Source: a virus. From it: a DNA stretch of 12,507 nucleotides. Both the position numbers and the translations under genes were made by a program. The stretch's first letter is position 1. Each line of letters opens with the position of its first letter. This document shows positions 9,362 to 10,374 of the stretch, in pieces. The notes under the pieces were generated by a model. That model did not search any database, was not told where the DNA came from, and saw only the letters and a program-made list of their open reading frames with translations. The stretch lies in UHGV virus genome UHGV-0291998; one strand, given 5' to 3'.

Positions 9362-9550
9362 ATGAACATTTATTTCAGAATAGTTATATCACTGGCAATT
9401 ATCACATGTATTTACGGATTAATCGTTCCGGCCCTCATATCAATGAAGGATACGGTAGCAGTGATTTCTGGCTTTGCTCTGGCGTGTCTGACCCCGCCCT
9501 GCATTTATGCCATTTATAAGGGTCTTTCTTTTTCTAAGGATAAAAGATGA
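9362..9550 (+). CDS. Small membrane protein, two predicted TM helices (62 aa)
   Basis: MNIYFRIVISLAIITCIYGLIVPALISMKDTVAVISGFALACLTPPCIYAIYKGL... AGGAGG (9353..9358) upstream. The stop overlaps the start of the SPFH gene (ATGA at 9547..9550). Confidence 0.6.
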   Translation: MNIYFRIVISLAIITCIYGLIVPALISMKDTVAVISGFALACLTPPCIYAIYKGLSFSKDKR

Positions 9551-10374
9551 AAAAATTACTTTTTGCTTTAGCCCTTGTTCTGCCGACCATTGGCCTTGTC
9601 GGTTGCGATCGCGTTGAGCCTGGTAATGTGGGCATCAAAGTAAACAAACTGGGCGACGATAAAGGCGTCGGTGAAGTGGTCGGTGTTGGGCGCTACTGGA
9701 CGGGATGGAACACTGAGGTTTACATCTTCCCGACCTTTAAGCAGATGAAGACCTACGATGATCCATTCAGTTTCCAGATGAGTGACGGTACAACCATCGG
9801 CTATCACATCGGCGTGGCCTACAAAGTTGATCCATCCAAAGTTACCACAGTCTTTCAGACCTACCGCAAAGGCGTGGACGACATTACCGACACCGACCTG
9901 CGCCAGAAGATAGCCGACGCACTCAACCGACTGGCCAGCAAAATGACCACCGACAAATTTATCGACGGCGGCAAGTCTGAGCTGCTGGATGCAGCTCTTA
10001 AAGACATTCAGGAAGAAATGACGCCCATCGGTATTCAGGTAATGAGCCTCTCATATGTGGGTAAGCCGGAGTACCCACCTACTGTTATCGACAGCATTAA
10101 TGCCAAAGTCACGGCGAACCAGAAAACCCTGCAACGCGAGCAGGAAGTAAAACAGCGCGAAGCGGAAGCCAACATGTTGCGCGCGGAAGCTGCCGGACAG
10201 GCAGATGCGATTCGCACAAAAGCCCAGGCCGAAGCCGATGCTATTCGTTTACGCGGTGAAGCTCTGCGCCAGAACCCCGGTGTTATGGAGCTGGAAGCCA
10301 TCAACAAGTGGAACGGTACACTGCCGCAATACATGACCAGCGGTGCCAACACACCATTTATTCAGGTTAAGTAA
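9547..10374 (+). CDS. SPFH/band-7 (stomatin/prohibitin-like) domain lipoprotein, predicted inner-membrane retained
   Basis: Signal peptide MKKLLFALALVLPTIGLVGC with lipobox LVGC and Asp at +2 (the Lol-avoidance rule in E. coli). SPFH-like core ...VEPGNVGIKV...GYHIGVAYKVDPSKV... with an Ala/Glu-rich coiled-coil tail ...REAEANMLRAEAAGQADAIRTKAQAEADAIRLRGEAL. Confidence 0.8.
   Translation: MKKLLFALALVLPTIGLVGCDRVEPGNVGIKVNKLGDDKGVGEVVGVGRYWTGWNTEVYIFPTFKQMKTYDDPFSFQMSDGTTIGYHIGVAYKVDPSKVTTVFQTYRKGVDDITDTDLRQKIADALNRLASKMTTDKFIDGGKSELLDAALKDIQEEMTPIGIQVMSLSYVGKPEYPPTVIDSINAKVTANQKTLQREQEVKQREAEANMLRAEAAGQADAIRTKAQAEADAIRLRGEALRQNPGVMELEAINKWNGTLPQYMTSGANTPFIQVK

Follow-up and report, generated by a model that had tools for sequence, protein, structure and literature searches.

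A stretch of 12,507 nucleotides of the virus genome UHGV-0291998 (hereafter called the window) carries on its plus strand two overlapping genes of together 337 codons, a small membrane protein gene followed by a gene for a lipoprotein with an SPFH/Band_7 domain. The upstream gene (positions 9362 to 9550; ORF list, PHROG match, and conservation) encodes a 62-amino-acid (62-aa) protein of the phrog_1130 family, here called the partner, and the downstream gene (9547 to 10374; Pfam, PHROG, AlphaFold2, and Foldseek) encodes a 275-aa protein of the phrog_200 family. Read from the sequence, the two open reading frames (ORFs) share the tetranucleotide ATGA at 9547 to 9550, the partner gene is preceded on the same strand by a Shine-Dalgarno sequence, AGGAGG (9353 to 9358), and AAGGA is found 6 nucleotides (nt) ahead of the ATG of the SPFH gene. 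The RefSeq gene models are identical for both genes (WP_001028879.1, "hypothetical protein," for the partner and WP_000734576.1, "SPFH domain-containing protein," with 275 aa), and the existence of the two-gene arrangement is confirmed. Comparison with 27 alleles revealed purifying selection on both genes. The ratio of nonsynonymous to synonymous substitution rates (dN/dS) is 0.13 to 0.45 for the partner gene, and therefore, the small ORF is a genuine gene rather than a chance occurrence. For the SPFH gene, dN/dS is only 0.02 to 0.05 (dN of about 0.01 and dS of up to 0.53), a constraint about ten times tighter than that on the partner and exceptional for a phage accessory gene, as would fit a protein with many assembly interfaces.

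The SPFH protein starts with a lipoprotein signal peptide (9547 to 9606, plus strand). Its N-terminus, MKKLLFALALVLPTIGLVGC followed by DR, has the order typical of such signals, with a basic n-region (MKK), a hydrophobic h-region (LLFALALVLPTIG), and, at codons 17 to 20 (9595 to 9606), the lipobox LVGC, which agrees with the consensus [LVI][ASTVI][GAS]C. After cleavage, the mature protein would begin with Cys20, followed by Asp21 at position +2 and Arg at position +3. In an alignment of 80 sequences, the conservation of Cys20 is 90% or higher. Most of the wider family has a lipobox, as have 106 of 120 close homologues, and Asp at +2 occurs in 102 of the 106 close enterobacterial homologues. 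An earlier note on this DNA, made from its letters alone, had recognized the lipobox with its Asp at +2; both are in the sequence, and the RefSeq gene model agrees.

The mature part of the protein matches the Pfam family Band_7 (PF01145) with an E value of 8e-31 (107.9 bits against a cutoff of 23.6 bits); the match covers residues 22 to 208 and positions 2 to 176 of the 176 positions of the profile. The match to PHROG 200 ("lipoprotein") has an E value of 1e-114. An AlphaFold2 model, built as a single chain on 80 sequences with a predicted local distance difference test (pLDDT) score of 83.8, has an SPFH alpha/beta core at residues 19 to 175 (9601 to 10071, plus strand; delimited by secondary structure, pLDDT, and the Pfam envelope of 22 to 208), followed by a single long helix of 65 residues rich in Ala, Glu, Arg, and Gln (residues 178 to 242; 10078 to 10272, plus strand; AlphaFold2 and Foldseek) and then by a short helix and a flexible tail. 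Residues 254 to 260 (10306 to 10326, plus strand) form a C-terminal motif, K-W-N-G-x-L-P, of which Trp255 and Gly257 are invariant across the phrog_200 family (alignments A3 and A4). With this model, Foldseek returned full-length matches to prohibitin (8rrh, 7e-14), HflK/C (7vhq, 2e-13), and QmcA-YbbJ (9e-8), as well as to erlin, stomatin, flotillin, and the vault shoulder; all 64 PDB matches at E ≤ 1e-3 belong to SPFH or vault families. The SPFH-like core and the Ala/Glu-rich tail described in the earlier note were thus found again by profile and by fold. In the model, the helix at residues 178 to 242 corresponds to the wall-forming helix of cage-type SPFH proteins, and by its predicted architecture, the 275-aa protein is of the cage-forming SPFH class, which suggests that it would assemble into a membrane-attached ring or cage.

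Within the SPFH superfamily, membership in HflK or HflC was considered and rejected. The protein stays more than 100 bits below both equivalog cutoffs (23.4 bits against 159.4 for TIGR01933 [hflK] and 25.4 against 134.4 for TIGR01932 [hflC]), and in a comparison with the PDB, the family profile is equidistant from QmcA (5e-6), HflK (7e-6), and prohibitin (9e-6), with HflC likewise not favored. The anchor and the gene pair of the HflK/HflC type were not found either, as the protein has a lipoprotein signal instead of an N-terminal transmembrane helix and there is a single SPFH gene. Judged by its sequences, the phrog_200 family is an SPFH subfamily of its own. It shares with HflK/HflC and prohibitin, its best Foldseek matches, the succession of SPFH core, long wall-forming helix, and conserved C-terminal segment, and the SPFH domain of HflK/HflC and prohibitin is located on the periplasmic or intermembrane-space side, as predicted for the window protein. 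However, the window protein differs from them in having a lipid anchor and not a transmembrane helix, in being encoded by a single gene and not by a hetero-pair, and in a sequence identity of only 15 to 18%. Association with FtsH is a feature of HflK/HflC for which there is no evidence in the window protein.

In the partner, two hydrophobic transmembrane helices account for about 45 of the 62 residues. It matches PHROG 1130 ("membrane protein"), as do 21 of 23 diverse sequences of its family, and members of its family are about 60 to 80 aa long. A motif with the family signature P-x-[LM]-[IVLF]-S, which reads P23-A-L-I-S27 in the window (codons at 9428 to 9442, plus strand), marks the end of the first transmembrane helix; Pro23 and Ser27 are invariant in an alignment of 23 diverse sequences. 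Across the family, the number of Lys and Arg residues per sequence is 1.2 in the N-terminus, 0.5 in the loop, and 3.3 in the C-terminus, and therefore, both termini are predicted to be in the cytoplasm, with Pro23 and Ser27 in the short periplasmic loop. The earlier note had likened the pair to bacterial operons of an SPFH gene and a gene for an NfeD-type membrane partner. The analogy of arrangement stands, in that the genes are adjacent and co-oriented, but an NfeD identity of the partner has to be rejected: a Pfam scan of the window partner gave no match, 23 members of its family gave no match to NfeD (PF01957) and no other convincing match even at E ≤ 1 (only scattered weak matches that reflect transmembrane bias), and 62 aa are too short for an OB-fold. 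Two identities among lysis proteins were rejected as well. For a holin, there was one weak Pfam match in 1 of the 23 members (E = 0.038), and the gene is never found in a lysis cassette. A two-component spanin (Rz/Rz1-like) is at odds with the early-left location, the lysis genes lying elsewhere in the prophage; moreover, the periplasmic loop of the partner is short, and the lipoprotein of the pair is the 275-aa SPFH protein.

To judge from their genomic association, phrog_1130 and phrog_200 form an obligate pair, either syntenic or fused. Hidden Markov models (HMMs) were built for both families, and the stop-to-stop segments of 174 fetched loci were scanned. In 162 of the 174 loci, the partner HMM had a match (E < 1e-3) in the position immediately 5′ of the SPFH gene, and in those loci, no further match was obtained at this threshold. 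The coupling to a small membrane protein gene by an ATGA overlap, which the earlier note had described for the window, is thereby extended to a conserved linkage. With the SPFH proteins clustered at 70% identity, the partner accompanies 14 of the 15 clusters that represent the true family, as opposed to none of the 7 clusters of more distant SPFH proteins. A small gene for a protein with two transmembrane helices overlaps the SPFH start in phage N4 (gp19/gp20), in the P2-like phage P88 (gp11/gp12), and also in phiP27 and RCS47. In the rV5-like phage GAP31, the LUZ24-like phage Ab22, and the FelixO1-like phage phiEa104, the partner is kept upstream with one or two small genes intervening; in phiE125 and a crAss-like phage, weak look-alikes with two transmembrane helices are found directly upstream, and phiCbK has a different membrane protein there. 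In several records, the partner is present but unannotated, namely, those of phiP27 (L002, ~4003 to 4194), the P1-like RCS47 (L005, ~2732 to 2968), and the crAss phage cr128_1 (L181, ~2299 to 2499); in RCS47, the reading frame of the partner extends beyond the SPFH start codon.

Furthermore, about 17 to 20 of 150 family representatives are single ORFs in which the two-helix domain is followed by a linker, the signal peptide, and the SPFH domain. From such fusions it follows that the C-terminus of the partner is cytoplasmic and the SPFH domain periplasmic, in agreement with the charge bias. At least one fused ORF (L177) has neither an ATG nor a GTG start and only a poorly placed TTG, at which its lipoprotein part could begin separately.

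The pair is also exchanged as a block among lambdoid phages. A megablast match to phiP27 and Stx2 phages is confined to positions 9358 to 10403 (plus strand) of the window, which contain the ribosome-binding site, the partner gene, the SPFH gene, and a 3′ hairpin, and in a direct blastn comparison with phiP27, the main common block is 9358 to 10387 with 92.4% identity. The annotated genes that flank this block in the window differ from those in phiP27 and the Stx2 phages. Because the nucleotide match consists of the two genes and the 3′ hairpin and the flanks differ, we conclude that the pair moves as a cassette. The hairpin, located just 3′ of the SPFH stop codon (10382 to 10402, plus strand; RNA fold), has a GC-rich stem of 7 bp (GCCCGGU...GCCGGGC), no U tract, a folding energy of −14.4 kcal/mol, and a z score of −1.97, and it lies within the block conserved with phiP27. 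It was not called as a terminator by the terminator scan and may act in RNA stability or as a weak attenuator.

An exhaustive search yielded 227 representatives of the SPFH family (50%-identity clusters) at E ≤ 1e-30. By tblastn, the protein was found in 356 of 50,697 phage records (~0.7%), among them phages of Pseudomonas, Klebsiella, Erwinia, Escherichia, Burkholderia, Caulobacter, Salmonella, and other hosts. The carriers include N4-, rV5-, FelixO1-, LUZ24-, crAss-, and phiCbK-like phages, jumbo phages, lambdoid, P2-, and P1-like phages, and a T4-like contig; N4, the T4-like contig, the rV5-, FelixO1-, LUZ24-, and phiCbK-like phages, and the Ruegeria phages among them are strictly lytic. 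Of 5,426 complete Escherichia coli genomes, 535 carry the sequence, with 198 places on plasmids, and Stx-converting phages are among the carriers (megablast). At every phage locus inspected, the module lies among early, middle, or replication genes: in the early/middle/replication region of N4, between cox and a replication gene in P88, between the genes for a single-stranded DNA-binding protein and a DNA polymerase in a Salmonella prophage, near a helicase gene in a crAss phage, and near polymerase and ligase genes in phiEa104. Two loci stand out by their neighbors. In a 168-kb T4-like contig (L087, 2385 to 4852), the module directly follows NADAR and Gad2 (anti-Gabija) genes and precedes NAD-salvage genes, and in the Ruegeria phage DSS3_MAL1 (L086, 1008 to 4870), it lies near the genes for thioredoxin and Acb1 (anti-CBASS); these two loci may mark a counter-defense neighborhood. 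Elsewhere, a fused form of 350 aa lies between the RNase R gene and rpsP/khpA/alr (L175/L176, 6001 to 7053), and in Luteibacter (L178, 5735 to 6852), a partner of 89 aa overlaps the SPFH gene by 4 nt beside a PI-PLC gene. No phage genes were found within 6 kb of either, and both are apparently nonphage, chromosomal copies.

The window itself is 99.84% identical, over positions 1172 to 11904, to a prophage in the chromosome of E. coli E110019, and the collinearity ends after 11904. Its minus strand carries Q-like, primase (toprim), helicase, and cro-like genes. On the plus strand, an S24/LexA-type repressor gene (6336 to 7028) is followed by a terminator-like hairpin with a T run (7047 to 7064; terminator scan) and a pL-like sigma-70 promoter (7094 to 7122; TTGACA-17-TATTAT, 11 of 12 consensus positions), from which co-oriented genes run on, ending in E110019 at the integrase gene. 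This gene order is that of lambda cI, pL, and the early-left region and marks the window as a lambdoid prophage; the early-left location given in the earlier note is borne out by the order of repressor, terminator, promoter, and integrase together with the identity to E110019. In a consensus scan, the promoter at 7094 to 7122 was the only strong candidate for the operon that holds the cassette, and no promoter-like site was found directly before 9362. On either side of the −35 region of this promoter is a TCGRTAAAC half-site (one at 7082, the other at 7107), and both resemble the palindrome TTTATCGGaaagCCGATAAA at 6283 to 6304 between the repressor and the cro-like gene; two matches at the promoter were reached by 6 of 200 shuffled sequences. 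The half-sites and the palindrome are suggestive of operators of the prophage repressor. Because no promoter is found at 9362 and the operon is repressor-proximal, the pair is expected to be silent in the lysogen and to belong to the early-left genes. RCS47, in which the cassette stands alone, likewise had no promoter of its own by the consensus scan, a scan that was uninformative in this case. The first gene of the early-left operon (7163 to 7582) encodes an HTH_3 protein classified in PHROGs as "CII-like regulator" (phrog_4836, 2e-50), in an unusual position.

Taken together, the data are best explained, with a confidence that comes near to an even chance without reaching it, by a conserved mobile membrane module with a periplasm-facing SPFH scaffold that acts during lytic growth. 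In our model, the partner would form a helical hairpin in the inner membrane with both ends in the cytoplasm and its Pro-x3-Ser loop at the periplasmic surface. The SPFH protein would be exported and lipid modified at Cys20, and in E. coli, Asp at +2 would probably retain it on the periplasmic face of the inner membrane, where its oligomers could cover part of the membrane as a ring or dome. The partner, as a roughly 1:1 subunit, would supply the transmembrane "fence" that a lipid-anchored SPFH protein lacks and that elsewhere is provided by NfeD or by the N-terminal transmembrane helix of the SPFH protein itself. With transcription from the pL-like early-left operon, synthesis of the pair would follow induction or infection and would be absent from the quiescent lysogen, and the inner membrane of the infected cell might be insulated or compartmentalized such that the entry of superinfecting DNA is blocked or the membrane is protected during lytic growth. 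Localization, oligomerization, complex formation, timing of expression, and function are all inferred. As to the output, we favor a function in excluding superinfecting DNA or in protecting the membrane because early, nonessential envelope proteins of lytic and temperate phages usually serve such purposes; by this analogy, we propose it tentatively and would give it clearly less than an even chance. A wider formulation, which we regard as speculative and rather improbable, would be a distinct two-component SPFH system that is spread over more than ten unrelated lineages of lytic and temperate phages, in which the freely reassorting partner with its invariant Pro-x3-Ser motif replaces NfeD and acts as the specificity element, the highly conserved SPFH protein is a generic scaffold with its lipid anchor on the periplasmic side, and the cages are made early to block DNA entry or membrane-acting effectors of abortive infection.

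Several observations speak against this picture of an inner-membrane complex made for lytic growth. Family-wide, the residue at +2 is mostly Ser or Thr, with Tyr in N4 and Glu in rV5-like phages, and therefore, retention in the inner membrane is not general to the family and the localization cannot be generalized. The retention signal of Asp at +2 can be weakened when position +3 is basic, as it is here with Arg, and an outer-membrane location of the SPFH protein is conceivable. The complex of partner and SPFH protein is inferred solely from synteny and fusion, and the assignment of promoter and operators, and with it the silence in the lysogen, comes from consensus scans alone. Prophage exclusion genes are usually expressed in the lysogen, whereas the cassette appears to be repressed there. 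In PADLOC-DB 2.0, neither protein of the pair nor any product of the genes next to it matched a defense-system model at E ≤ 0.1, and in the literature, we found annotations and speculation but no experiment on any member of the phrog_200 and phrog_1130 families. Finally, the two genes have discordant histories. Between the window and P88, the partners are only 30% identical and the mature SPFH proteins 97%; the values are 26% and 96% for RCS47 and 61% and 54% for a Salmonella prophage (L088). Nucleotide comparison with the P88 and P1 alleles places a recombination junction at the lipobox codons (~9595), such that the partner gene travels with the signal peptide (9362 to 9606) and apart from the mature SPFH protein, and one SPFH allele occurs with at least three very different partner alleles. 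Such free reassortment would be odd for tightly coadapted subunits. Either the fit requires just the invariant motif and the topology, or selection acts separately on the partner as an element of specificity.

The closest parallel in gene arrangement is found in the SPFH-NfeD operons (QmcA-YbbJ, YqiK-YqiJ, and the Pyrococcus stomatin PH1511 with PH1510), which also have a small, coupled gene for a membrane protein immediately upstream. As in these systems, the probable place of the partner is within the membrane, beneath the SPFH assembly. However, it has no NfeD or OB-fold but an invariant P-x3-S motif of its own, and the SPFH subunit of the window is a lipoprotein. The SPFH domains of QmcA and YqiK face the cytoplasm, in contrast to the periplasmic location predicted for the window protein. 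Members of the same two families (PHROG 200 and 1130) are phiP27 L05, N4 gp20, P88 gp12, phiCbK gp238, and phiE125 gp43, all of them annotated as band 7 or SPFH lipoproteins but uncharacterized; the window SPFH protein is 98% identical to phiP27 L05 and 62% identical to N4 gp20. The T4 Imm and Sp, T5 Llp, and phi80 and N15 Cor proteins are likewise accessory, nonstructural envelope proteins, which serve in superinfection exclusion, but they have no relationship to the pair in sequence or fold, and none is an SPFH protein. They are products of early genes of both lytic and temperate phages and act at the periplasmic face.

The earlier note had proposed that the protein modulates the lysis-lysogeny decision, with reference to HflKC and FtsH. 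The phage SPFH protein would then join, replace, or compete with the host HflK/C cage around FtsH and alter the proteolysis of CII/CIII-type regulators or host substrates, thereby shifting the balance of lysis and lysogeny. The predicted periplasmic orientation is indeed shared with HflK/C in E. coli, HflK ranks first in a single-sequence search of the PDB (E = 2e-4), the sub-threshold NCBIfam matches are HflC and HflK, the top Foldseek matches (prohibitin and HflK/C) are partners of FtsH-type AAA proteases, and the operon begins with the "CII-like regulator" HTH protein. However, most of the sequence similarity comes from the low-complexity helix (residues 114 to 240), the protein falls short of the HflC and HflK equivalog models by a wide margin (25 and 23 bits against 134 and 159), and the family profile does not distinguish among QmcA, HflK, and prohibitin. 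Since, in addition, the module is found in chromosomes and in strictly lytic phages that have no lysogeny decision to make, a dedicated role in this decision is not supported, and we consider a mimic of HflKC or a modulator of FtsH to be quite unlikely. The membrane-based exclusion that the note had named as an alternative would be possible. The earlier interpretation as a whole is partly supported.

A role in membrane integrity or the timing of lysis, in which the scaffold would stabilize the energized inner membrane or cage a pore former and so delay premature triggering of the holin or counter membrane-depolarizing abortive-infection effectors, prolonging productive infection, is unlikely too, but less so than the HflKC mimic. 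It would accommodate the partner, which has the size, the two transmembrane helices, the predicted N-in/C-in topology, and the basic C-terminus of a class II holin, the presence of the module in lytic phages and its presumed expression with early genes, the very strong purifying selection on the SPFH gene, and the neighbors of L087 (Gad2, NADAR, and NAD salvage) and L086 (Acb1). SPFH proteins are, moreover, regulators of channels and of membrane stress. However, the evidence from neighborhoods is anecdotal, coming from two loci, the only holin-family signal is the weak match in 1 of 23 partners (E = 0.038), the module is never in a lysis cassette (in E110019, the holin and lysozyme genes are at the other end of the prophage), and the SPFH domain would be in the periplasm, away from cytoplasmic effectors. 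Least probable is a lipoprotein of lysogenic conversion or virulence, which would be made in the lysogen, reach the outer membrane or outer-membrane vesicles, and act on the animal host as a TLR2-type agonist or a fitness factor. The HflK/C-like SPFH protein PM0222 (OAZ06802.1; 25 to 35 kDa) from a prophage island of Pasteurella multocida is reported to be present in growing cells and outer-membrane vesicles and to signal through TLR1/2, and a deletion mutant was attenuated in mice (PMC9872710); PM0222 may be related to the phrog_200 family. The cassette is a moron-like mosaic block that is present in Stx-converting phages, and the residue at +2 would permit sorting to the outer membrane in much of the family. 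However, Asp at +2 predicts retention of the window protein in the inner membrane, the cassette lies in a repressor-controlled early operon with no promoter-like site before it, the family is frequent among phages that are strictly lytic and infect environmental bacteria, where animal virulence is irrelevant, and the conserved partner would be left unexplained.

The gene in the window is itself a member of an already annotated family in a probably defective prophage. RefSeq, GenBank, and PHROGs already label its product as an SPFH protein or a lipoprotein. Genes of this kind appear in several genome papers, which assign them no function, and for an N4-like phage, a publication of 2026 states that the role of the SPFH protein "remains unclear." What our analysis adds is that phrog_1130 and phrog_200 are obligately paired, at times by fusion, that the partner is not NfeD and carries an invariant motif, that the two genes reassort, that the SPFH protein is under extreme constraint, and that the range of carriers is broad and extends to lytic phages and to chromosomes. 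Wide carriage and strong constraint together lead us to suggest that phages use membrane-microdomain scaffolds for something important in lytic growth. Because the pair is small and present in easily manipulated E. coli phages (N4, P1-like, P2-like, and lambdoid), it offers a tractable entry point to phage envelope biology (exclusion, lysis control, and counter-defense) and to the recruitment of partners by SPFH proteins. The SPFH cages of HflK/C, prohibitin, flotillin, stomatin, erlin, and QmcA have been visualized only recently.

Upstream of the cassette, a 72-aa ORF with a ParE-like toxin domain (8694 to 8912; PF24732, 3e-17) overlaps the end of a 71-aa ORF (8507 to 8722), and the two ORFs (8507 to 8912) may be a small toxin-antitoxin pair of the early-left operon, in which the antitoxin was not identified. 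The prophage is probably decayed or defective: a PHROG-3007 ("RusA-like") gene at 11164 to 11732 is split into two overlapping frames and is frameshifted in the RefSeq copy of E110019, and the Q-antiterminator-like gene at 1367 to 1768 is marked as frameshifted in the same copy. The right edge of the window (12322 to 12507) is occupied by a fragment of the C-terminus of an IS66-family transposase (Pfam, 1e-17).

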